Below, in pieces: positions 4,520 to 39,674 of a stretch of 41,714 nucleotides of DNA; the stretch's first letter is position 1, and each line of letters begins with the position of its first letter. The translations under genes and the position numbers were made by a program. The notes below the pieces were generated by a model that made no database searches, was not told the DNA's origin, and saw only the letters and a program-made list of their open reading frames with translations. Source of the stretch: Deltaproteobacteria bacterium. Lineage in GTDB: Bacteria > Desulfobacterota > GWC2-55-46. The stretch is taken from NCBI GenBank assembly GCA_016234955.1, contig JACRNN010000045.1, positions 1 through 41,714 of the forward strand, in the 5' to 3' direction.

Positions 4520-4708
4520 GTGTCCGCCTCTTTTGCCTGCATTAACTAAAACTTGATTCCACGGTGTCCCGCAATATAAGGGGCAAACGCCTCCTTGTTT
4601 GCATAATCATATTAATCGGCACACCGGTAAATATCTTAATCGGTAGAGGTCTGTATTCTGGGGGGGTGCCGAGGGATGATTTTTTGAGTAGCCGAAAGGA
4701 TGAGCGTT

Positions 4709-4825
4709 TAAAATTTTCCGCGGCAAGTTGCGGAAAATTTTCAAGTAAGGAATTTATCGTTTGTAATTCGCTCGCTCCTCCCCAAAGCCAAGCCGCGGAG
4801 AATCCGCTCGCTATGCTTGTCAAAC
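4709..4825 (+). repeat. R1-family repeat, long (double-module) copy A
   Basis: AAAATTTTCCGCGGCAAGTTGCGGAAAATTTTCAAGTAAGGAATTTATCGTTTGTAATTCGCTCGCTCCTCCCCAAAGCCAAGCCGCGGAGAATCCGCTCGCTATGCTTGTCAAAC. It aligns along its whole length with 7757-7875 and 39559-39674. Confidence 0.85.
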
Positions 4826-4832
4826 GAAACGG

Positions 4833-5492
4833 CTATTCCGGGTTCACTATCCCTTTACGGATAGCGGCCCTGATCATGCCGGCCATATCATTGATCTTGA
4901 GTTTCTTCATGATGTTGTTCCTGTGGGTCTTTACGGTGGCCACGGATATGAAGAGCTTTTCCGCTATCTCCTTGCTGGTCCTGCCGTCCGCGATCTGCCT
5001 TATGACCTCTCTCTCCCGCTCGCTCAACGCGTCGAACGGGTCATGGGACGCCTTTTCCTTCTTTATCATGTCGACGTAATCGTCGAGGAATTCGCCGGCT
5101 ATCTCCTTGCTTACGTATTTGCCCCCGCCCAGCACCCTTTCAACAGCGCTTACGAGCTCCTCCGTTGGCGAGTCCTTCAGCACGTAGCCGAGCGCCCCGG
5201 CCCTGAAGGCGTCTATCGCGTGATATACGTCCGAATGCATCGAGAGCATCACGACCCTGGCCTGCGGGAACTGCTCGATGATCCGCTTTGTGACGGTTAT
5301 CCCGTCGAGGTCCGGCATGGTTATATCCATGACTATCACGTCCGGCCTGAGCGAGAGCGCGCCCCTTATGGCGTCGGCGCCGCTCCGCGCCTCTCCGACC
5401 ACCGTAAAGCGCGCGGTCTTGGAGAGCACCGACCTTATGCCGTCTCTGAATACCGGATGGTCGTCGGCTATGAATATCCGTGTCTTTTTCAT
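4833..5492 (-). CDS. NarL/LuxR-family two-component response regulator
   Basis: Track ORF trimmed to the ATG at 5492 (MKKTRIFIADDHPVFRDGI...). The receiver has DVIVMDITMPDLDG. The C-terminal LuxR HTH reads LSEREREVIRQIADGRTSKEIAEKLFISVATVKTHRNNIMKKL. Confidence 0.9.
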   Translation of the reverse strand: MKKTRIFIADDHPVFRDGIRSVLSKTARFTVVGEARSGADAIRGALSLRPDVIVMDITMPDLDGITVTKRIIEQFPQARVVMLSMHSDVYHAIDAFRAGALGYVLKDSPTEELVSAVERVLGGGKYVSKEIAGEFLDDYVDMIKKEKASHDPFDALSEREREVIRQIADGRTSKEIAEKLFISVATVKTHRNNIMKKLKINDMAGMIRAAIRKGIVNPE

Positions 5493-7110: not shown

Positions 7111-7271
7111 CGAAGCAGGCTCATCTTCAGGTAAATCGACGCCCTGGATGCTTTGTCGCGTAAGGCCGCACAGGTGGCGGCAGGAGTTTCCTCCCGCCGC
7201 ATCCGAGGCTGATGCTGTCAGGAGGAAACTCCTGACAGACGGAACGCTAAAAAAAGACGTCTGAGACAAGC

Positions 7272-7308
7272 AGGCCCGTTCCACCGCTGAACCGGGCGGA
7301 ACGGGCCT
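7272..7308 (-). terminator. Hairpin downstream of the rhodanese gene
   Basis: An 11-bp stem, AGGCCCGTTCC with GGAACGGGCCT, lies 7 nt after the TAG at 7315-7317. The T-run is about 15 nt further on, so it may be a REP-type stabiliser rather than a classical terminator. Confidence 0.4.
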
Positions 7309-7314
7309 TATATC

Positions 7315-7722
7315 CTACTTCGGCTCTACCGGATAACCGGCTCTTACCCAGGCGTCAAAGCCTCCCTTGAGCGCCTTGACCCTCTGAAAGCCCTTTGACT
7401 GAAGTATCAGCGCCGCACCGGCGCTGGAGGCCTCGTCCGGTCACGTGCAATAGGTGATTATCTCCTTGCCCATCGGAAGCTCCGCGGACTTTTCGTCCAG
7501 GTCGCTGTAGGCCATCCTTACGGACCCCTTTATCCTGACCTTGCTCGACCTGTACGAGCCGCCGGAGCGCACGTCGAGTATGACGATGCCTTCGCCGCTG
7601 TCGATCTTTGCCTTGAGTTCGTCAACCGTTATCCTCGGCACCCGGGAAGAATCCGCGGCATAGACACGCGCCGAAAAGATTACAAACGCCACGGCCGCAA
7701 GTACGAAAAACAGTCTGCGCAT
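7315..7722 (-). CDS. Exported single-domain rhodanese (sulfurtransferase) with predicted selenocysteine at the catalytic position (135 aa, U94)
   Basis: Track ORF 7441..7722 ends ...KEIITYCT at TGA 7443..7441. The same frame continues for 41 codons (PDEASSAGAALILQSKGFQRVKALKGGFDAWVRAGYPVEPK) to TAG 7317..7315, completing the rhodanese fold. The TGA aligns with the catalytic Cys of GlpE (CYHGNSS versus UPDEASS). The signal peptide is MRRLFFVLAAVAFVIFSARVYA. Confidence 0.75.
7409..7425 (-). promoter_or_regulatory. Candidate bacterial SECIS hairpin
   Basis: The minus strand reads UGA, 15 nt, then AGCGCC-GGUGC-GGCGCU. The perfect stem can extend to CAGCGCC/GGCGCUG, and the apical loop contains GU. 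Confidence 0.55.
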
Positions 7723-7756
7723 CCGTTACCCCCTTTTTTTGTTTTTACCGGCCGGT

Positions 7757-7875
7757 TAAAATTCCCCGCAACTTGGGCTTAGGAAAATTTTCAAGTAAGG
7801 AATTTATCGTTTGCAATTCGCTCGCTCCTCCCAAAAGCCCAAGCTGCGGGGAATCCGCTCGCTATGCTTGTTGAC
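7757..7875 (+). repeat. R1-family repeat, long copy B
   Basis: TTAAAATTCCCCGCAACTTGGGCTTAGGAAAATTTTCAAGTAAGGAATTTATCGTTTGCAATTCGCTCGCTCCTCCCAAAAGCCCAAGCTGCGGGGAATCCGCTCGCTATGCTTGTTGAC. The first hairpin is degenerate compared with copies A and C. Confidence 0.85.
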
Positions 7876-7936
7876 ACCCCCGGCGGGCGGCGTAAAGTCC
7901 GTCCAAGCCTATTTCCCATGCCCGCCCTGACGCGGG

Positions 7937-8046
7937 CTAACAGGTCGCTGAAAAAGCCCCATCTGCTTTGTCGTCATCGTCGCTCGTCACTGCGGCGTAC
8001 ATAAGAAGTACGCCTTTCTCACTTCTCGACTCCTCGCATCTGTAAC
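7937..8046 (+). repeat. R2-family repeat, copy 1
   Basis: Modules AACAGGTCGCTGAAAAAGCCC, the hairpin GGCGTAC-N7-GTACGCC and CTCACTTCTCGACTCCTCGCATCTGTAA recur in reverse orientation at 25531-25648. Confidence 0.7.
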
Positions 8047-8088
8047 TTTTTGAGCAACCTGTCCTATTTTGAGTTTTTCCGCATCCTG

Positions 8089-11025
8089 CTAAATGATGAG
8101 CTTTGCTATGATATCATTGAGCTGGCCGACTGTAAAAGGCTTTCTGATGTGCAGGTTTCCGGTCTGGCGCAGGAACTTCTGCGTCTCCGGGTTCTTGCTG
8201 TCCCCCGAAATGAAGATTATCCTCCCGGCAACGCGGGGCTTTATCCTCTTGACGTGCTCGTAGAAGGCCTTGCCGTCCATGCCCGGCATCTTTATGTCGC
8301 TGATTATCAGGTCATAGTCGCTTTCCTCTATCTTTTTAAGCGCCTCATCCGCGGACGAGCACATTTCCACTGTGAACCCGGAAAAACTCAGAGCCTCGTT
8401 CAGGAGGTCCCGCACAAGGGGCTCGTCGTCGAGGACAAGGGACTTGAGGCCCCTGGCCCTGGACTTGAGCGAATTCGCGCGGGGCCCGGCCGAGGCCGCG
8501 GCCTCGCTTTTCTCCGTCCCTGCGGTAATCGGCAGTTCGACGAAGAATTCCGTGCCGCCGGACGGGCGGCTTGAGAAGTAGATATTGCCCCCGTGCTCCC
8601 TTATTATGCCGTAGGAGATGGACAAGCCGAGCCCGGTGCCCCTGCCGACGTCCTTTGTGGTGAAGAACGGGTCGAATATCTTGCCGGCGACGTTCTGGGG
8701 GATGCCCTTGCCCGTGTCCTCGAACCTTACTACTATCCTGTCGCCGTTTTTGCGGCTCGTGATCCTGATCCTGCCCGGTTTTCCGGTATCGTGGATGGCG
8801 TCCCTCGCGTTGTTCAAGAGGTTCAGGAAGACCTGGAGCATCTGGTTGTCGTCGATCATCGTATAGGGAAGGGGCTCTTCGAGGTCCGTCTCCACCTCTA
8901 TGTTCTCCACCTTGAGCTGATAAGCCCGCAGGTCGACGCAGTTCTCTATCACCCTGTTCACGGACTCGTACCTCTTCTCCGGCCTCTTCCACCGCGCGAA
9001 CGTCAGGAGGTTGTCGATGATCTTCTTGCACCTGTGGGAGGCTTCGTTTATCTTCCTGATCTTCGAGGAAGCGTCCTCGTCCAACCCGCCCTGTTCGAGC
9101 ATAAGCTCGGAGAAGCACATGATGCCGGTGAGCGGGTTGTTGATCTCGTGCGCGACGCCGGAGACGAGCTCCCCGAGGGAAGAGAGCTTCTCGGACTGCA
9201 TGAGCCTGCCCTGGAGGTTCCTGTGCTCGGTGACGTCCCTTATGTAGACGACCGCCATGCCCGGTTCGGCCTCCGTGCTCAAAAAGGGGAAGGCCCGCCA
9301 CCGGAGGATGCTGCCGTCCGCGGCAATCAACTCGGCGTCCGCGGGCTTGCCGGTCCTGACGGCCGCCTTTATCGGGCAGTCCTCCGGCGGCTCTATCCCG
9401 AAAAAGCCGTAGATGTTCCTCCCAACCGCCGCCGGTTCGCTCACCTTGAACCTTTCGGTGAAATGCCTGTTGGCCTCCATCACGCCGTAGTCATGGTCCA
9501 CAAGGAGGATATACTCCGTTACGCTGTCGTAGATGAGCCTGAGCTTGTCCTTCGCCTCCTTAAGCTCATGCTCCTCCATCGTTATTATGGTATTCGCCTT
9601 TTTCAGCTCCGCGTTCTTCCTGTCGAGGTCCTCGTTCAGAAGCCTCAGTTCCTCGTTGATTGCGTGCAGTTCCTCGGTCTGGCTCTGGGTCTCCTCGTAT
9701 GCGACCTCGAGTTCCTCGTTGGTCTTCTTCATCTCCTCGTTGAGCCCGGCCAGCTCCCTGTTCTTGACCTCTATCTGCTCGAGGTGCCTGCGTCCGTCCT
9801 CCTCGCGCCTTACCACCTCGTCCATCATGGAGTTGAACGTGACGGCGAGCCTCTTCACCTCGTCCCCCGTATCGAAGGGCGGGACGACGCCGGCCCTTGC
9901 CAGCCTGTCCCCCCCGGCGAAAGAGGCGACCTTGCCGCTCAAGGACCTTAGCGGGCTCGTTATCCTGGCCTTTGAGATGAGGGCGCTGATAAAGGCGATG
10001 GCGAGCCCCACGGCCGTGATGACGATGATGAGGCGCTGGTTCTCCTTCTGTATGACCCAGAGGCTCTCCCTCGGTATGCTGGCGTCCAGCGTCCCTATTA
10101 CGTCGCCCCTGTTGTCCCTTATGGCATCGAATATGGAGATATACGACATGCCGGGCGAGCCCCACTCCAGGAAGAACGGCCCCCCGGAAGAGACCCCCGC
10201 GAGGGCCTCGACCGGCACCGCCGTCCATTTAAGGCTGACGCCGGACTTGTCCATCAGGTTGGTCGAGACGCGGGCGCCTTTCAACGAGACGGTGGCGAAG
10301 AAGTCCGGGAACCTCTGCGCCACGGCCTCAGGCAGGTGGTTGTCGTTATTGAGCACGTCGCCGGTCACTATCGCCCCCACGGGTCCGTTGCGCTCGCTCA
10401 GCACCGGGGTCACCACCATCAGGGCGATAGCCTCGTCAGGGGGGCGCCTCAAGTCTTGCGCCCCCTCCGCCCAGTTGGACGCGGCGGGCTTTGGAAAGAT
10501 GCCGTCCATAAGCTCGTTGCCTTCGAGCCTCAGCACCTCCCTGCCGAGTATCTCCGTGGATATCTTCGGTTCGGCGCTCTTAAGGGCGTAGGAGACAAGG
10601 CCGTTTAACGGAAGCGCGTCCCCCGAGTAATCGCCGTTCAGGCGCGCTATAACCACTCCGTCGCCGTCGACGACGTACCATACGTCCACGTATGGGCGCA
10701 TCCGCTTCCAGGTGGACATCATCTTCTTGAGGTATGTCTTATCGCGCCGGGCCACGGCGCCCTTGATATCTTCCATGGACGCGGCCTGCAGCATCCCGTA
10801 GCGCATCTGCTCGCCCCTGGCGTAATACTCGGTCCACGCGGCCTTGAGCCCCATGGACGCCTTGTCACGCGCCTCCTTCATCAAACGCGCGTTGATGACC
10901 TTGTACGACGCGTAGGAGAGGATCGCCATGGGCACTAATATCACGGCGAGGAACGCCACCGTGAGCTTGAAGCCGAGCGTCATATCGTAGTAGTACTTCA
11001 TCATCAAGCGGCCCATGGCTCTCAC
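8089..11025 (-). CDS. Hybrid sensor histidine kinase (TM, periplasmic sensor, TM, HAMP, long coiled coil, PAS, HisKA, HATPase, receiver)
   Basis: A 978-aa ORF. The H-box is VAHEINNPLTGI, the N/G boxes are LLNNARDA, FEDTGKGI and GTGLGLS, and the C-terminal receiver has DLIISDIKMPGMDG and IRKPF. The GTG start 11025..11023 overlaps the cheR stop (GTGA); an alternative ATG is at 11016. Confidence 0.9.
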   Translation of the reverse strand: MRAMGRLMMKYYYDMTLGFKLTVAFLAVILVPMAILSYASYKVINARLMKEARDKASMGLKAAWTEYYARGEQMRYGMLQAASMEDIKGAVARRDKTYLKKMMSTWKRMRPYVDVWYVVDGDGVVIARLNGDYSGDALPLNGLVSYALKSAEPKISTEILGREVLRLEGNELMDGIFPKPAASNWAEGAQDLRRPPDEAIALMVVTPVLSERNGPVGAIVTGDVLNNDNHLPEAVAQRFPDFFATVSLKGARVSTNLMDKSGVSLKWTAVPVEALAGVSSGGPFFLEWGSPGMSYISIFDAIRDNRGDVIGTLDASIPRESLWVIQKENQRLIIVITAVGLAIAFISALISKARITSPLRSLSGKVASFAGGDRLARAGVVPPFDTGDEVKRLAVTFNSMMDEVVRREEDGRRHLEQIEVKNRELAGLNEEMKKTNEELEVAYEETQSQTEELHAINEELRLLNEDLDRKNAELKKANTIITMEEHELKEAKDKLRLIYDSVTEYILLVDHDYGVMEANRHFTERFKVSEPAAVGRNIYGFFGIEPPEDCPIKAAVRTGKPADAELIAADGSILRWRAFPFLSTEAEPGMAVVYIRDVTEHRNLQGRLMQSEKLSSLGELVSGVAHEINNPLTGIMCFSELMLEQGGLDEDASSKIRKINEASHRCKKIIDNLLTFARWKRPEKRYESVNRVIENCVDLRAYQLKVENIEVETDLEEPLPYTMIDDNQMLQVFLNLLNNARDAIHDTGKPGRIRITSRKNGDRIVVRFEDTGKGIPQNVAGKIFDPFFTTKDVGRGTGLGLSISYGIIREHGGNIYFSSRPSGGTEFFVELPITAGTEKSEAAASAGPRANSLKSRARGLKSLVLDDEPLVRDLLNEALSFSGFTVEMCSSADEALKKIEESDYDLIISDIKMPGMDGKAFYEHVKRIKPRVAGRIIFISGDSKNPETQKFLRQTGNLHIRKPFTVGQLNDIIAKLII

Positions 11026-11858
11026 TCCGCCTTCCTGTATACGCTGATCCCTTTGCCCGCGCTTGAATACCTGACGTATCCTGACGCGAACGCGGACGGC
11101 ACCACCTCGGCCTTGCCCAGCACGAGGAGACCCCCGGGTTTCAAGGCGTAGTCGAGCTTTTCAAAGACCTTCTCCTGAAGGGCCTTGTTGAAATATATGA
11201 AGACGTTCCTGCAAAAAAGTATCTTGACCTTTGAGATCGACGGGCTTCCGACTATGTCGAGGGCGCCGAACTTAACCAGGTTCCTTATGTTGTATTTGAC
11301 CTTGCGGCAGCCGTCGTCCCTGAAAAAAAACCTCTCCATGCGCTCCGCGCTTACGTTGGCCACGGACTCTTCCCTGTACCTGGCCCTGCGCGCCGCGTCG
11401 ATGGCCTCGTGGTCGAGGTCGGTGGCGAATATCTTCGTCTGCCTCAGTCCCTCTTCGCTCAGGAACTCCGAAAGGAGGATAGCCAGGGAATACGCCTCCT
11501 CGCCGTGAGCGCACCCGCAGCACCAGGCCCGTATCCCCTCGTCCGGGGAGAACTCCCTCCTTAGCTCCGCGTCCAGGAATTCAAAGACGTTCGGCTCCCT
11601 GAAGAACTCGCTGACCTTGACGGTAAGATTGGAAAAAAGGCGGGTGTATTCGGAGGGGTCTCTGTCGAGGAGGTCGCGGTAGTCGCTGAAGGATGAAACG
11701 CCGGCGGCGCCGAGCCTCTTCAATATCCTGCGCTTCAGGCTCGAACTTTTGTAATCGCGGAAATCCCAGCCGCGCTCGGAAAATATCTTCTCAAGGAGCA
11801 AGGACTGTTCCTCCTCGAAGATGTTGGAGATATGCTCTGTCCCCGATGAATGAGCCAT
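11022..11858 (-). CDS. cheR: CheR-type protein-glutamate O-methyltransferase
   Basis: A 278-aa ORF with FFREPNVFEFL, IRAWCCGCAHGEEAYSLAILL, KIFATDLDHEAI and FCRNVFIYFNKALQEKVF...GGLLVLGKAE, which are typical CheR SAM-MTase motifs. Confidence 0.85.
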   Translation of the reverse strand: MAHSSGTEHISNIFEEEQSLLLEKIFSERGWDFRDYKSSSLKRRILKRLGAAGVSSFSDYRDLLDRDPSEYTRLFSNLTVKVSEFFREPNVFEFLDAELRREFSPDEGIRAWCCGCAHGEEAYSLAILLSEFLSEEGLRQTKIFATDLDHEAIDAARRARYREESVANVSAERMERFFFRDDGCRKVKYNIRNLVKFGALDIVGSPSISKVKILFCRNVFIYFNKALQEKVFEKLDYALKPGGLLVLGKAEVVPSAFASGYVRYSSAGKGISVYRKAE

Positions 11859-15442: not shown

Positions 15443-15937
15443 ATGTCTGAACAGGCAAATAGCAGGGATTCAGTAACCATCGTCCTATTCAGCGGCGACC
15501 TGGACAAGGCCATAGCCGCCTTCGTGATAGCCACCGCCGCCGCGTCCATGTGTATGAAGGTCAATATTTTCTTCACCTTCTGGGGCTTAAACGTCATAAA
15601 GAAAAAGGGCGGGCTCATAAAGGGGCGCAACTGGATGCAGAAGATGCTCAACATGATGAACTACGGGCACGCGCGCAGGCTCGCCCTCTCGAAGATGAAC
15701 ATGCTCGGCATGGGCCCGGCCATGCTCAAGGCGATGATGGCGCAAAAAAAGGTCCCGGGCATCCATGAATTCATCTCCACGGCCCATGAGCTCGGCGTCA
15801 AGTTCTACCCGTGCGAGATGAGCATGAGCGTGATGGGGCTCAAGGAAGAAGACTTCCTGGACGAATGCCAGGGGGTGATCGGGGCCGTCTCATACCTCGC
15901 GATAGCGAAGGAATCGAACGTAAACCTATTTATCTGA
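15443..15937 (+). CDS. DsrE/DsrF-like (DsrE2-type) sulfur relay family protein
   Basis: A 164-aa ORF: VTIVLFSGDLDKAIAAFVIATAAASMCMKVNIFFTFWGL ... VKFYPCEMSMSVMGL. It has the architecture typical of COG2210 proteins that pair with TusA, and TusA is encoded 83 nt downstream. Confidence 0.7.
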   Translation: MSEQANSRDSVTIVLFSGDLDKAIAAFVIATAAASMCMKVNIFFTFWGLNVIKKKGGLIKGRNWMQKMLNMMNYGHARRLALSKMNMLGMGPAMLKAMMAQKKVPGIHEFISTAHELGVKFYPCEMSMSVMGLKEEDFLDECQGVIGAVSYLAIAKESNVNLFI

Positions 15938-16020
15938 CGCGGCCGCGTCAAGCACGGTTTTCATCCGCGTTGCTTCAAAGGCGCGGGAAGTCCTATTACC
16001 GGTAACAGAGGTGCTTCATA

Positions 16021-16257
16021 ATGTCACAATATCAGGTGGATAAGACCCTGGATGCCCGCGGGCTTTGCTGTCCCATGCCGTCCGTAAAGACCGCCCTGGC
16101 GCTTGAGAGGATGGATTCCGGCAACGTCATCGAGGTGCTTACCGACGACCCGGTGTCGAGGAGGGACCTGCCGGTCTGGGCGCAGAGTACCGGCAACATA
16201 CTCCTGGGCGTGGAAGAGGAAGACAAGACCATCAGAATATATATTCAAAAGGCTTGA
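16021..16257 (+). CDS. tusA: TusA/SirA-family sulfurtransferase
   Basis: A 78-aa ORF with the signature LDARGLCCPMP (CPxP motif), followed by VIEVLTDDP. Confidence 0.85.
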   Translation: MSQYQVDKTLDARGLCCPMPSVKTALALERMDSGNVIEVLTDDPVSRRDLPVWAQSTGNILLGVEEEDKTIRIYIQKA

Positions 16258-23187: not shown

Positions 23188-24766
23188 TCAGCAGTAAAGG
23201 GGGCTCTTGCACGTCAAGACCTGCTCGGCCCTGGTCCCGGCCCTGTAGACAGTAATGCCCTTACACCCGAGCTTATAGGCCATGAGGTACGCGTCCCTCA
23301 CCTCCTCCACCGTCGCCCCCGGCGCGAGGTTTATGGTCTTGCTCACGGCGTTGTCCGTATGCCTCTGGAAAGCGGCCTGCATCCTTATATGCGCCTCCGG
23401 GCTTATATCGAAAGCCGTTGGGAAGACGTTTTTGACCGCCTCCGGGACGTCGTCCCTTTTCTTTATGTCCCCGTTGTCCGCCATGTAGCTGATAAGCTCA
23501 GGGGTGTAGAACCCCTCCTCCCTTGCGACCTCTTCCACAAGGGGGTTGACCTCCGGCATCCTGACCCCGTTCAAGACCTGTCTGGTATAGCTCAGGGAAT
23601 AGAACGGCTCTATGCCGGAGGAACACCCGGCTATGATGCTGAGCGTGCCCGTGGGGGCGATCGTCGTAGTCGTGGCGTTCCTCACCAACGCTCCCCCCGG
23701 CTTGTCAAATACGCTCCCCTTGAAGTTCGGGAACCCGCCCCTCGCCTTTGCCAGCGCCCTCGATTCGTCCCAGGACGTCTCCCTTATGAACCCCATCACC
23801 TCTTCGGCCCCTTACCGCGAGCCTGACCGTTGCCCCGAGCCTTTCATAATCGAGCGCCCAGGACCCGCCCTCCCTTTTGAGCATCCTTGAGAGGTTCAAG
23901 GACCCGAGGTTGCACGGCTCGTAGGAGAGGAGCGGCTGCTCCCCGCACGGGTTAGTGGCCTCTATGCCGCCGAGGAGCGGGGTGGGGTTGTCCCTGTTTA
24001 TCCTGTCTATGAAAATGACGCCCGGCTCGCCGTTCCTCCATGCGCACTCTACTATCCTGCCGAACACCTCGGCCGCGTCCTTAATCCCCACGATCATGCC
24101 TGTCCTCGGGTTTACAAGGGGGTAGCCGGCCCCCCTTTCCAGCGCGTCCATGAACTCATCCGTTATCGCCACGGAGAGGTTGAAGTTCGTGAACTCGGCC
24201 GGGTCTTCCTTAACCGTTATAAATGAGATGATGTCGGGATGGTCCACGCGCAGTATCCCCATGTTGGCCCCGCGCCGCGTTCCCCCCTGCTTTATCGCCT
24301 CGGTGGCGGCGTTAAAGACCCTCATGAAGGAGACCGGGCCGCTCGCCACCCCGCCGGTCGAGCCGACGATGTCGTTCGAGGGCCGGAGCCTCGAGAATGA
24401 AAAGCCCGTCCCTCCGCCGGACTGGTGTATTATGGCGGTGGTCTTAACGGCCTCGAATATCGACTCGAGCGAGTCCTCCACCGGAAGGACGAAACAGGCG
24501 GAGAGCTGCTGGAGCCTCCCGCCGGCGTTCATGATGGTCGGGGAATTCGGGAGGAAGCGGAGCGAGGCCATCAACCGGTGGAACTCCTCCTCGTAGCGCG
24601 CAACGTCCGCGTCCCTCGCATATAGCTTCTCGGCAAGGGCGACGTTGGCGGCAACGCGCCTGAACATCTCCTCAGGCGTCTCCGCGACCTTGCCGAACCG
24701 GTCTTTTTTAAGGTACCTGCGCTCAAGCACCGTGAGCGCGCCTGGCGTCAATTCGAGGGCCGTCAT
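23188..24766 (-). pseudogene. nrdJ: Class II (adenosylcobalamin-dependent) ribonucleotide reductase NrdJ, disrupted by an internal deletion plus frameshift
   Basis: Two track ORFs cover it (23705..24766 and 23188..23799). The N-part is colinear with Thermotoga NrdJ up to ...TVRLAVR ([35 protein letters not shown]). The C-part resumes in another frame at [29 protein letters not shown]. About 53 aa are absent (FLDNVIDV...GLGxMGFADLL...). The junction is at about 23805-23812. Confidence 0.8.
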
Positions 24767-24896
24767 GACCGTATTCTATCAGGTATGGACCCGGGGCGCA
24801 ACATGAAGGCCTGTTTAAGGTTTGGCAAAGTCCGCTTCAATATGTTATATAAAGAGCGCTGAATGGACGTGCGGCAAAAAAAGGGGGAATAAGTAT

Positions 24897-25439
24897 ATGA
24901 TCGATATCCGGGGCGCAAGGCCCGTCTATGCGGCCTTGTTTTTAATGATAGCCCTTGCATTGCTCTCCGGGTGCAAGAAGGTTGAAAAGGAAAAAGCCTC
25001 CGTTATGGAGAACCTGCCCGCCGGGGCCCGCGCGGCGGCGCCGCCGTTTACGATAAAGACGCTTGCCGGGAATGAAATCAGCCTTGAGAAGCTCAAAGGG
25101 AAGGTGGTCGTGATAAACTTCTTCGCCTCATGGTGCGGCCCCTGCGCGTACGAGGCCCCCGTGCTCCAGAGGCTCTATCTCAAATACCGGGAGAGCGGGG
25201 TGGAGTTCGTCGGCATAGCCGTGCAGGACAGTCTTGAAGCGGCCTCCGGCTTTGTAAAGGAGCACGGCTGGACCCTGCCGGTGGGGCTCGACAAGAACGA
25301 CGCCATATCCGGCGCGTACAATGTGTTCGGGGTGCCCAAGACCAGCCTGGTGGGAAAAGACGGACGCATCGCTTACGAGCACATGGGCGCCGTCACCGAG
25401 GAAGTCCTCGACGCGGAGATAAAAAAGGCGATGCGATAA
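24897..25439 (+). CDS. TlpA/ResA-like thiol-disulfide oxidoreductase lipoprotein
   Basis: Track ORF trimmed to the ATG at 24897, with GGGGG upstream. The lipobox is LALLSGC and the thioredoxin motif is FFASWCGPC. Confidence 0.85.
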   Translation: MIDIRGARPVYAALFLMIALALLSGCKKVEKEKASVMENLPAGARAAAPPFTIKTLAGNEISLEKLKGKVVVINFFASWCGPCAYEAPVLQRLYLKYRESGVEFVGIAVQDSLEAASGFVKEHGWTLPVGLDKNDAISGAYNVFGVPKTSLVGKDGRIAYEHMGAVTEEVLDAEIKKAMR

Positions 25440-26010: not shown

Positions 26011-27195
26011 CTAATACCCCCTGGCAAGAAGCTCTTTAACCGGGACCTCTCTTCTAAATAACAGATAGCTTGACCCTGACGTATTCTTGAGCGCCTCTTT
26101 GAGTTCCTTTCTCTTCATGGAAGGGTCCCGTCTCTTAACGGCGCTCTCAAAAAAACGGTTATAAAACTCATCAGGGAAGACCCAGACCTCGAAAACGAGC
26201 CGCTCGGCCTTGACAGGGCGCTTGACGCCGTAGTCGAATTCGTGGCTCTTGAACGGCGGGAGCCTGGTGTCGAAAAGTTCCTTTGAAAGGTCCAGGGTTA
26301 CTTTTCTCCCGATTACCGCCTCCTTCAAGGTGCCTTTCAATATCCTTCCCCTCGCGTCAATCAGAAAACCCTTTATTACGACAAGGGGCGTGACGTAAGT
26401 CGGGAAGTAATGGCCCACCCCGGAGTTGGTAATCCTGAGTTTCGCGCCGACGCTGTCATCTCCCACGTTACTTTCCACATCGAAGGTAACCCCGCTTTTG
26501 ACCATATCCGGGTCATGGATGCCTCTGAAAAGATGCCTCCGGCCGGGCATATGGCAGCTCTGACATGCGATATCGCCCTTTCCGTACTCGCTTTCCTTCC
26601 ATTCCATGTAAGTATTTACGAGGAGCTTCCCGTTCAAGTCAAATCCTTCGTCAAGCTGATGGCACGCGGCGCAAAACTCGGCTTTTCCAAAAAATTCGTT
26701 TTGAACCGAAGCGTGATCGGCTTTTACCGTTGCCTTGAGTCCGTCCTGGCCAGGAGAAGCCGGACCGAAGACGCCGCTCCGTCTCACATGGCATACGGCA
26801 CAGCTTACACCCGATAATTTCAGTCTTTCATCAAAAGAGCCGTTGGAAAGATATGCCTTCTCTCCCGGCTCCCGTTCATCAACGATCACTTCATTCTGCA
26901 AAGCAAGGGGCGCATGGCAGTAATAGCAGGAACCGGCTGTTTGCGGGTCGGTCTCCGGGCGTAATTGGGCAAGAAGCCCGGGCCCTACACTCTTACTGTG
27001 AAGCGCCCCTCTCCAGTCCTCGTACTGGTCCCGATGACACTTTACGCATCTCTCCGGGTAGAGGTCTTCCGCGGACCTTGAAGGGCCGGTCTTTACCGGC
27101 CTCAGCCAGTGTTCATGCGCGGCGGCTTCTCCCCCGATGGCGGGCGGAGGAGAAGTCAACGCCAAAAAAATGGTGAAAACGATTAGCTTCAGCAC
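26011..27195 (-). CDS. Periplasmic pentahaem c-type cytochrome
   Basis: A 394-aa ORF with a GTG start 13 nt after the upstream cytochrome stop. It has a signal peptide (MLKLIVFTIFLALTS...) and five CxxCH motifs: CVKCH, CYYCH, CAVCH, CAACH and CQSCH. Confidence 0.85.
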   Translation of the reverse strand: MLKLIVFTIFLALTSPPPAIGGEAAAHEHWLRPVKTGPSRSAEDLYPERCVKCHRDQYEDWRGALHSKSVGPGLLAQLRPETDPQTAGSCYYCHAPLALQNEVIVDEREPGEKAYLSNGSFDERLKLSGVSCAVCHVRRSGVFGPASPGQDGLKATVKADHASVQNEFFGKAEFCAACHQLDEGFDLNGKLLVNTYMEWKESEYGKGDIACQSCHMPGRRHLFRGIHDPDMVKSGVTFDVESNVGDDSVGAKLRITNSGVGHYFPTYVTPLVVIKGFLIDARGRILKGTLKEAVIGRKVTLDLSKELFDTRLPPFKSHEFDYGVKRPVKAERLVFEVWVFPDEFYNRFFESAVKRRDPSMKRKELKEALKNTSGSSYLLFRREVPVKELLARGY

Positions 27196-27208
27196 CTGAA
27201 CGCCCGCT

Positions 27209-27727
27209 CTACTTCATCTTGCAAGGGTTCTTTGCGCCGCACGGGTTTTTCATGCCGCAGGGATTCACAGGCGTTGCGCTCTCCCTTGAATTAGCCGTTA
27301 TATAAGCGGCAAGGGCGGTCATCTCCTGAGAGTTCCAGGCAAGCGGCTTGCCCTTCATTGGGTTTACCATGCAGAAGTTTATCATTTGGTCCATGGTAAC
27401 TATATCGCCTGTCATGTTGATATGCTTCGGGAAAGGCTCCTTTTTCAGTCCCGCTCCTTTCGGGTGGCAGGTGCCGCAGGCCGTGCCGGATGTCCCGAGC
27501 GCGGTATCACCCCACAACTTCTCACCCATCTCCTTGAGCATGGCAGAGTCCTTTATGGGATTCTTTCTGATCGGGATGCCCTTTGAGGCGCATGGATTAC
27601 CGGCCATGCAGGGGTTTTTGGAGCATGGGTTCTTGTCCCTGGCCGCCGCTCCGTCTACAAAACCCAAGGTTATAAGCATAGGGGCTATCAAAAATATTTT
27701 TAAAAGCTTCACGTAAACTGGCCGCAT
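27209..27727 (-). CDS. Monohaem c-type cytochrome with NPC hexapeptide repeats at both mature termini
   Basis: A 172-aa ORF with a strong RBS (GGAGGA) and a signal peptide. The single haem motif is CGTCH. The N-terminal tail is KNPCSKNPCMAGNPCA and the C-terminal tail is NPCGMKNPCGAKNPCKMK. The core (MDQMINFCMVNPMKGKPLAWNSQEMTALAAYI) is reminiscent of SoxA/TsdA-like domains; that comparison is from memory. Confidence 0.85.
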   Translation of the reverse strand: MRPVYVKLLKIFLIAPMLITLGFVDGAAARDKNPCSKNPCMAGNPCASKGIPIRKNPIKDSAMLKEMGEKLWGDTALGTSGTACGTCHPKGAGLKKEPFPKHINMTGDIVTMDQMINFCMVNPMKGKPLAWNSQEMTALAAYITANSRESATPVNPCGMKNPCGAKNPCKMK

Positions 27728-39558: not shown

Positions 39559-39674
39559 TTAAAATTCTCCGCGGCAAGCCGCGGAGAATTTTCAAGCAAG
39601 GAATTCATCGTTTGTAATTCGCTCGCTCCTCCCCGCGGAAATCTGCGGGGAATCCACGCGCTATGCTTGTTGAC
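39559..39674 (+). repeat. R1-family repeat, long copy C (best preserved)
   Basis: TTAAAATTCTCCGCGG caag CCGCGGAGAATTTT forms a 14-bp perfect stem. It continues CAAGCAAGGAATTCATCGTTTGTAATTCGCTCGCTCCTCCCCGCGGaaatCTGCGGGGAATCCACGCGCTATGCTTGTTGAC. It sits between the convergent hicA and LuxR-family genes. Confidence 0.85.

Follow-up and report, generated by a model that had tools for sequence, protein, structure and literature searches.

The family closest to the protein described here is represented in NCBIfam by NF041203 ('rhodanese_LYCAU, rhodanese-related (seleno)protein'), a curated equivalog model. The 2005 analysis of the Sargasso Sea already counted rhodanese-related sulfurtransferases among its selenoprotein families, a CxU motif is listed for the rhodanese selenoprotein family (PMC13188914, PMC9312934), and a 2022 review refers to the same family as 'COG0607 form 2 (CxU)'. 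The statement in the preliminary description of this locus that rhodanese-related sulfurtransferases are among the listed prokaryotic selenoproteins agrees with this literature, in which we found no substrate, structure or Se-labelling data for the C-x-U rhodanese family. The other rhodanese selenoproteins (forms 1, 2, 4, UxxS/UxxG; TsoB) likewise have selenocysteine (Sec) at or near the active site, as predicted by the same logic of a Sec/Cys pair, but their motifs and architectures are unlike those of the protein considered here.

We studied a rhodanese gene on the minus strand of a 41,714-nt (41.7-kb) stretch of DNA, the whole of which is referred to below as the window. The protein obtained by translating this gene through an in-frame TGA, with U written as C, matched NF041203 with 121.6 bits (E 1.5e-35; equivalog cutoff 115), residues 13-135 aligning to profile positions 5-126 of 126. 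Both have the C-x-U motif, a single rhodanese domain and an N-terminal hydrophobic leader, and they differ in the motif (TYCTU in the window protein, LYCAU in the model) and otherwise in nothing of substance. Acidobacterial, NC10 and DedA-fused relatives scored 77-112 bits against the same model, under its cutoff, which indicated that NF041203 is centred on the window protein's own clade. The match of the window protein to TsoB, a rhodanese/DsbD fusion (NF045694), was weak at 18.9 bits versus a cutoff of 805. The window protein is a member of the catalogued C-x-U selenoprotein family and, because this family is already curated as NF041203 and covered in reviews, the finding is a correct rediscovery and not a new one.

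The annotated ORF at 7441..7722 on the minus strand is 93 residues long and ends in ITYCT followed by TGA at 7443..7441; coordinates and translation both agree with what the preliminary description had reported. Translation past the TGA showed that the frame is open for 41 more codons (PDEASSAGAALILQSKGFQRVKALKGGFDAWVRAGYPVEPK), up to a TAG at 7317..7315. We consider 7722..7315 on the minus strand to be one gene, encoding a 135-residue exported rhodanese with SelB- and SECIS-directed insertion of Sec at the catalytic UGA, and we put the probability of this reading at roughly 0.88. The features of the gene and its immediate surroundings are as follows.

7315..7722, minus strand: full coding sequence of 135 codons, with ATG at 7722..7720, the putative Sec-UGA as codon 94 and the stop TAG at 7317..7315
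7729..7734, minus strand: Shine-Dalgarno-like AGGGGG, 6 nt 5' of the ATG, read off the sequence
7441..7443, minus strand: in-frame UGA, very probably coding for selenocysteine (Sec94) at the catalytic position, from alignment with GlpE Cys65, the Cys of 6mxv and Cys-form homologues
7447..7449, minus strand: TGC codon of Cys92, the Cys of the C-x-U motif, which does not vary in alignments A1, A3 and A4
7342..7629, minus strand: rhodanese domain, residues 32-127, lying across the UGA, from Pfam PF00581 and the AlphaFold model of homologue P0006
7315..7317, minus strand: true stop TAG, homologues sharing the terminal ...YPVEPK
7273..7307, minus strand: strong hairpin 3' of the TAG (GGCCCGUUCC...GGAACGGGCC), starting 7 nt past the TAG, with a U-run at 7255..7249

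In searches with the Pfam Rhodanese profile (PF00581), the 93-aa part matched positions 1-68 only, the 41-residue tail alone matched positions 73-101 of 102 (E 3e-4) and the joined protein matched positions 1-101 of 102 (E 1.2e-14). Since the 93-aa part and the tail cover separate stretches of the profile, the rhodanese domain is whole only when the UGA is decoded. The profile search had been proposed as a check on the claim that the 41 codons encode the rest of a rhodanese domain, and the match of the tail on its own upheld that claim. Taken alone, an open frame of 41 codons is weak evidence. The hairpin that had been noted after the TAG, at 7307..7273, was not called by a simple terminator scan and was confirmed by folding: it has a stem of ~14 bp, and the 81-nt stretch around it folds at -38 kcal/mol (z = -5.29). 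This hairpin is probably the end of the transcript. The gene has spacers of 366 nt upstream and 579 nt downstream and appears to be monocistronic.

The TGA position was aligned without gaps to Cys65 of E. coli GlpE (BLASTP, with GlpE taken from the K-12 genome), which confirmed the proposal that it falls exactly on the GlpE catalytic Cys, and phmmer against the PDB placed it on the Cys of CGSGFRS in entry 6mxv. Protein searches returned two types of relatives. The first were truncated proteins of 91-93 residues ending in ...ITYCT (P0001-P0005, with 82-90% identity, P0037 and P0039), and the second were full-length proteins with YCTCP[DN]EASS in the corresponding region. The TGA column is an invariant Cys in these Cys-form homologues (YCTCP[DN]E), as anticipated both in the suggestion that relatives carry CxCP(N/D)E and in the proposed comparison with Cys homologues. 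In alignments of 21-39 homologues, Y91, C92 and C94 were invariant and P95 and E97 nearly so, and the motif of the window protein is YC-T-U-PDE, with the C-x-U opening the rhodanese active-site loop. We also inspected the DNA of all the truncated database entries: in 13/13 metagenome contigs the truncated frame ended at a TGA that was followed by 41 conserved codons ending in ...YPVEPK. Homologues thus do not end at the TGA with nothing conserved beyond it, the situation that had been named as one that would count against a selenoprotein. Because databases hold these 91-93-aa versions, it is also clear that gene callers do truncate the rhodanese gene, as the preliminary description had supposed.

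When one genome per species was considered, TGA occupied the Sec column in 66 of 80 loci and TGC or TGT in the other 14. The 80 loci span Deltaproteobacteria MAGs, Acidobacteria, NC10, Planctomycetota and others, and the cultured acidobacterium Pyrinomonas methylaliphatogenes K22 carries the Sec form (locus L025, FCT-U-PNEGTSAR). The nearest relative, with 94% protein identity, is from a groundwater Deltaproteobacteria MAG (JACRLF010000021.1), and GCA_040960315.1 is also closely related. Past the UGA, frame 0 was free of stops over 38 codons in 73 of 73 sequences, versus stops in 50/73 and 49/73 for the other two frames. These counts bear directly on the possibility that the TGA is a genuine stop, such that the product would be a truncated protein of 93 residues, or the gene a pseudogene created by a TGC-to-TGA mutation with a relic downstream. 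The annotation by gene callers and the truncated database entries are in keeping with a genuine stop. However, the same "mutation" would have to be present in 66/80 species of several phyla, with the downstream frame remaining open in every sequence, the 93-aa product would be without the active-site loop and two helices of the fold, and the strong hairpin is located past the TAG and not past the TGA. Based on these data, we consider a genuine stop extremely unlikely.

The same comparison speaks to whether the TGA could be a sequencing or assembly error, or belong to an alternative code in which TGA is read as Trp or Gly. The source is probably a metagenome-assembled genome, and the window has a mosaic similarity to a related MAG (see below), either of which might favor an error, but an identical TGA is found in independent assemblies from many samples. 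As to an alternative code, 15 of 29 other window genes end at TGA in the ordinary way, which indicated that the genome is not recoded, and the homologues have Cys at the TGA column, not Trp or Gly. An error or an alternative code is therefore, in our estimation, vanishingly improbable, and we return to the reading of the TGA as a Sec codon.

Decoding of UGA as Sec in bacteria involves a stem-loop (SECIS) just past the UGA, and the bacterial SECIS model (PMC13188914) has a loop of 3-9 nt in which a G is present within the first two positions, mostly with G or U after it, a stem of 4-16 bp, an MFE of <= -7.5 kcal/mol and a UGA-to-loop spacing of 16-37 nt. The preliminary description had pointed out a perfect stem, AGCGCC-GGUGC-GGCGCU, 15 nt past the UGA (7425..7409) with GU in its loop. 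RNAfold lengthened the stem of this hairpin to 8 bp, enclosing a GUG loop, with a fold energy of -13.7 kcal/mol, and 0 of 200 shuffles folded as well (z = -3.66). The two descriptions of the hairpin that we use are:

7408..7426, minus strand: putative bacterial SECIS-type hairpin, stem 7426..7419 with 7415..7408, loop GUG
7424..7420 with 7414..7410, minus strand: family-conserved core of the putative SECIS, with a 5-nt loop at 7419..7415

The window hairpin agrees with the published model in every respect, the loop being 3 nt (GUG) or 5 nt (GGUGC), the stem 8 or 6 bp and the spacing 22 or 21 nt. An MFE of <= -7.5 kcal/mol was found in 69/71 Sec forms versus 3/14 Cys forms. Like the E. coli fdhF-type SECIS and the bSECISearch model, the hairpin is an in-ORF stem-loop just past the UGA with a small apical loop showing G then U and a spacing in the 16-37 nt range; it differs from the fdhF type in that its conserved part is short, a 5-bp core, and neither a conserved lower stem nor a bulged U, as compared with the fdhF-type SECIS, was detected in the hairpin of the window family. 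Because the fold energy of the wider 67-nt stretch was unremarkable (z = -0.29), the case for the hairpin rests on sequence comparison and not on folding energy.

For this comparison we used alignment A2, in which 71 distinct Sec-form sequences are aligned without gaps. RNAalifold on A2 produced the 5-bp core and 5-nt loop, in which the second loop base was G in 71/71 sequences and the third was U in 53 and G in 17. Changes on both sides were seen for 5/7 tested pairs, and in 8 sequences a C-G pair had become U-A because two synonymous third positions had changed together (AGC to AGU and GCG to GCA). The observed covariation was reached by none of 500 column shuffles, and sliding the partner columns destroyed the pairing (83% paired versus 26-52%). 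The strongest control for the hairpin is provided by the Cys forms. Among sequences encoding the same S-A-x-x-A peptide, the 5-bp core was intact in 60/61 Sec forms but in 1/9 Cys forms (p = 8e-9), and the Ala codon in the 5' arm was GCC in 60/61 Sec forms versus 2/9 Cys forms, all of these being raw sequence counts in which shared ancestry is not corrected for. Across phyla, the predicted 5-bp SECIS core and the loop G have been retained and compensatory changes have occurred, and the combination of a conserved TGA, a conserved downstream frame and a covarying hairpin in 70+ independent sequences is far beyond chance.

A covariance model had been suggested as a check on the hairpin, and we built one from 60 species, with the window and its near relatives left out. 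It found a single strong match in the whole window, at 7443..7407 (51.9 bits, E 3.4e-13), the next best window match having 9.7 bits; the homologous sites of Cys forms scored 10-32 bits. Searches of Rfam, at the gathering threshold and at a permissive E-value, returned no SECIS family match and chance matches only. Two of the Cys forms, L082 and L038, have TGC together with an intact SECIS-like hairpin that scores 32 bits with the covariance model, consistent with a recent replacement of Sec by Cys.

We searched for the machinery of Sec decoding in the DNA at hand. No selA, selB, selD or tRNA-Sec was found in the 41.7-kb window, ARAGORN detected no tRNA-Sec in the window, nor in any of 60 related loci, and Pfam searches of 30+ window genes identified no Sec-related genes. 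With tblastn, E. coli SelA, SelB and SelD had a real match in only one of the sequences searched (the window and 93 loci), namely L027; weak SelD-like matches in Blastocatellia loci were rejected as these proteins are ThiL. Inspection of 133 geometric read-through candidates in the window revealed none that was credible beyond the rhodanese gene. L027 (WGEY01000039.1) is from a Deltaproteobacteria MAG and has a Sec-form rhodanese at 4625-5050, 3-5 kb from selD and selB. Its selD (7795-8871, minus strand; TIGR00476, 357 bits) has an in-frame TGA of its own (..SCAG-U-AAK..) and encodes a Sec-containing SelD, while selB (9587-10050, minus strand) runs off the contig, which leaves just its C-terminal end.

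The lack of Sec machinery in the window would fit an explanation in which the UGA is read by a near-cognate or suppressor tRNA (Cys or Trp), or in which Sec decoding has been lost and the gene is turning into a Cys form or a pseudogene. Switches from Sec to Cys clearly do happen in this family, and the Cys forms L082 and L038 keep the hairpin. Against this, selection at synonymous sites maintains the hairpin specifically in TGA forms, seven close relatives (82-94% identity) have all kept both the TGA and the hairpin, and among close relatives the downstream codons have 3-5 synonymous to 0-1 non-synonymous differences, an excess not expected of a decaying gene. Read-through independent of Sec, or a loss of Sec decoding, is in our view very unlikely. 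Together, the comparative sequences contradict all three of the alternatives to Sec insertion considered here, and we infer that Sec is inserted in this organism.

To consider the likely structure of the protein we used the AlphaFold model of the Cys homologue P0006, which is 55% identical and stands in for the window protein. The pLDDT of the model is 95-98 within the domain and ~54 for the first 25 residues, and Foldseek matched it to solved rhodaneses at E 5e-9, including GlpE (1gmx), the rhodanese domains of persulfide reductases and TSTD1. The C-T-C motif is situated between the central strand (residues 87-91) and the next helix (95-109) of the model. As this is where rhodaneses carry their nucleophile, Sec94 is the predicted catalytic residue, and Cys92 is probably its selenenylsulfide partner.

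PspE is the periplasmic single-domain rhodanese sulfurtransferase of E. coli, and it resembles the window protein in being a small rhodanese with a signal peptide. Both PspE and GlpE have the same rhodanese fold, and U94 lies at the position of GlpE Cys65, the first of the six-residue loop. In contrast to GlpE and PspE, the nucleophile of the window protein would be Sec instead of Cys, and an additional invariant Cys precedes it by two residues. The identity between GlpE and the window protein is 43%, over 40 residues only, and their loops differ, P-D-E-A-S being acidic in the window protein where GlpE has the polar Y-H-G-N-S. The active-site loop U-P-D-E-A-S, with the conserved Glu97, is acidic and in this is unlike the loops of thiosulfate-binding rhodaneses, so a sulfurtransferase role is uncertain. 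The fold suggests a sulfur or selenium transferase.

Based on these features, we propose that a ribosome arriving at UGA94 would encounter the hairpin 14-15 nt downstream, acting as a bacterial SECIS with a loop that shows G then U. The hairpin would recruit SelB-GTP with Sec-tRNA(Sec), such that selenocysteine would be inserted in place of termination and translation would run on for 41 codons to the TAG. Sec94 would then occupy the catalytic-Cys position, where the active-site loop of rhodaneses begins, with Cys92, two residues before it, probably serving as the partner for a selenenylsulfide. The signal peptide would direct export through the inner membrane, and the most likely chemistry would be the transfer or reduction of sulfane sulfur (or selenium) in the periplasm via an Se-S or Se-Se intermediate.

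The export signal on which the last of these steps depends is:

7657..7722, minus strand: predicted signal peptide, residues 1-22 (MRRLFFVLAAVAFVIFSARVYA), likely cleavage after VYA (MRRLFFVLAAVAFVIFSARVYA|AD)

The cleavable signal peptide had been noted in the preliminary description, and by inspection its n, h and c regions could be recognized as MRR, LFFVLAAVAFVIF and SARVYA-AD, respectively, with cleavage at the c region a prediction. The peak 12-residue Kyte-Doolittle hydropathy of the N-terminus was 3.21, the signal peptide is conserved in close relatives, and the N-terminus of the Cys homologue P0006 lies outside the folded domain (pLDDT ~54). The window protein is therefore a candidate for export, as judged from its N-terminal sequence. 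Elsewhere in the family there is a longer leader, no leader, or a domain fused after a DedA/VTT membrane domain. Since some members are fused to DedA/VTT or have no signal peptide, export is limited to some clades and is not a property of the family as a whole.

The C-terminal fusions to DedA/VTT occur in many Acidobacteria, NC10 and others, where the rhodanese domain is preceded by a transmembrane helix and an RRRF motif, an arrangement that suggests a cytoplasmic rhodanese. They include both Sec forms (L042, L049, L053, L054, L056, L057, L059-L061, L069, L071, L073, L076, L086, L087, L090 and L091) and Cys forms (L050, L055, L067, L078, L081, L085 and L088). With these fusions possibly cytoplasmic and the window protein having a signal peptide, the family appears to be active on both sides of the membrane.

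The neighbors of the rhodanese gene in the window are signaling genes, encoding a hybrid histidine kinase, CheR, a LuxR-type response regulator and an MCP, and genes for a P-type ATPase, DsrE2 and TusA are found 4-8 kb from it. The latter two are:

15443..15937, plus strand: DsrE2 family protein (PF13686), 7.7 kb from the rhodanese gene
16006..16257, plus strand: TusA, with DsrE2 at the same 7.7-kb distance, four genes lying between the two and the rhodanese gene

DsrE2 and TusA follow the P-type ATPase, which has an N-terminal PTS-EIIA domain. The ATPase-DsrE2-TusA trio recurs near the rhodanese gene in L001 and L016, and DsrE2-TusA directly adjoins the rhodanese gene in L010 only. Clustering of neighbors over the family identified no gene that was conserved family-wide, and synteny was at the level of clades only. 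DsrE2-TusA may represent a clade-restricted sulfur-relay link to the rhodanese. In having DsrE2 and TusA near the rhodanese gene, the window and loci L010, L016 and L001 resemble the Rhd-TusA-DsrE2 relay, but that relay is cytoplasmic while the window rhodanese has a signal peptide, and the linkage is confined to a deltaproteobacterial clade. The window protein does not fit the cytoplasmic Rhd-TusA-DsrE2 relay, given the 7.7-kb distance, the four intervening genes and the signal peptide.

It is conceivable, although we think it rather unlikely, that the exported rhodanese with its C-x-U motif works in the periplasm as a redox or relay module based on a selenenylsulfide, capturing sulfane sulfur or selenium and feeding or reporting to the conserved neighbors of its clade (the hybrid histidine kinase and CheR, the LuxR-type regulator and the MCP, and DsrE2-TusA). 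If true, the protein would not be a housekeeping sulfurtransferase but would provide a chemosensory or two-component pathway with an input from a selenoprotein.

Several other features of the window were observed. A multihaem cytochrome c with an MtrC/MtrF-like domain adjoins a cytochrome with a SoxA/TsdA-type domain (26011-27727, minus strand), and nearby is a gene for a TlpA-like lipoprotein thiol:disulfide oxidoreductase (24822-25439, plus strand) that is thioredoxin-like and has a normal WCGPC motif. The cytochromes and the TlpA-like protein, ~18 kb from the rhodanese gene, hint at periplasmic sulfur and redox metabolism. The gene for the large subunit of ribonucleotide reductase (23188-24766, minus strand) consists of two overlapping ORFs in different frames, of which 23705-24766 corresponds to Pfam barrel positions 1-258 of 523 and 23188-23799 to positions 378-523; this split indicates that the frame shifts near 23,800, through an assembly error or because the gene is a pseudogene, and that its middle region is shortened.

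A repeated intergenic element of ~115 nt, which may be REP- or MITE-like, is present at 4709-4820, 7782-7874 and 39560-39673 of the window and at 11978-12092 of L001, and starts with a perfect palindrome, AAAATTCTCCGCGGC-AAG-CCGCGGAGAATTTT. Upstream of the rhodanese gene is a partial copy in the opposite orientation, its end 60 nt from the start codon, and two copies are directly 3' of the stop codons of LuxR/GerE-family genes. The similarity of the window to L014, the nearest-relative contig JACRLF010000021.1, is mosaic: nucleotide identity is 99.9% over 9573-11594, 97.7% over 8088-9316 and only ~92% over the rhodanese gene, and 9317-9572 is absent from L014. We take this pattern as a sign of population-level recombination or of a chimeric assembly.

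The identification of this gene does not change existing knowledge of selenoproteins. Its value is for annotation, as standard callers end the gene at codon 93 and public collections hold many fragments of 91-93 residues, so that the window offers a clean case of a selenoprotein that needs a Sec-aware pipeline. For the study of the family, the useful comparative points are that in the closest 80 species the Sec form is more frequent than the Cys form, that the predicted SECIS core is common to several phyla and that a cultured host is available.
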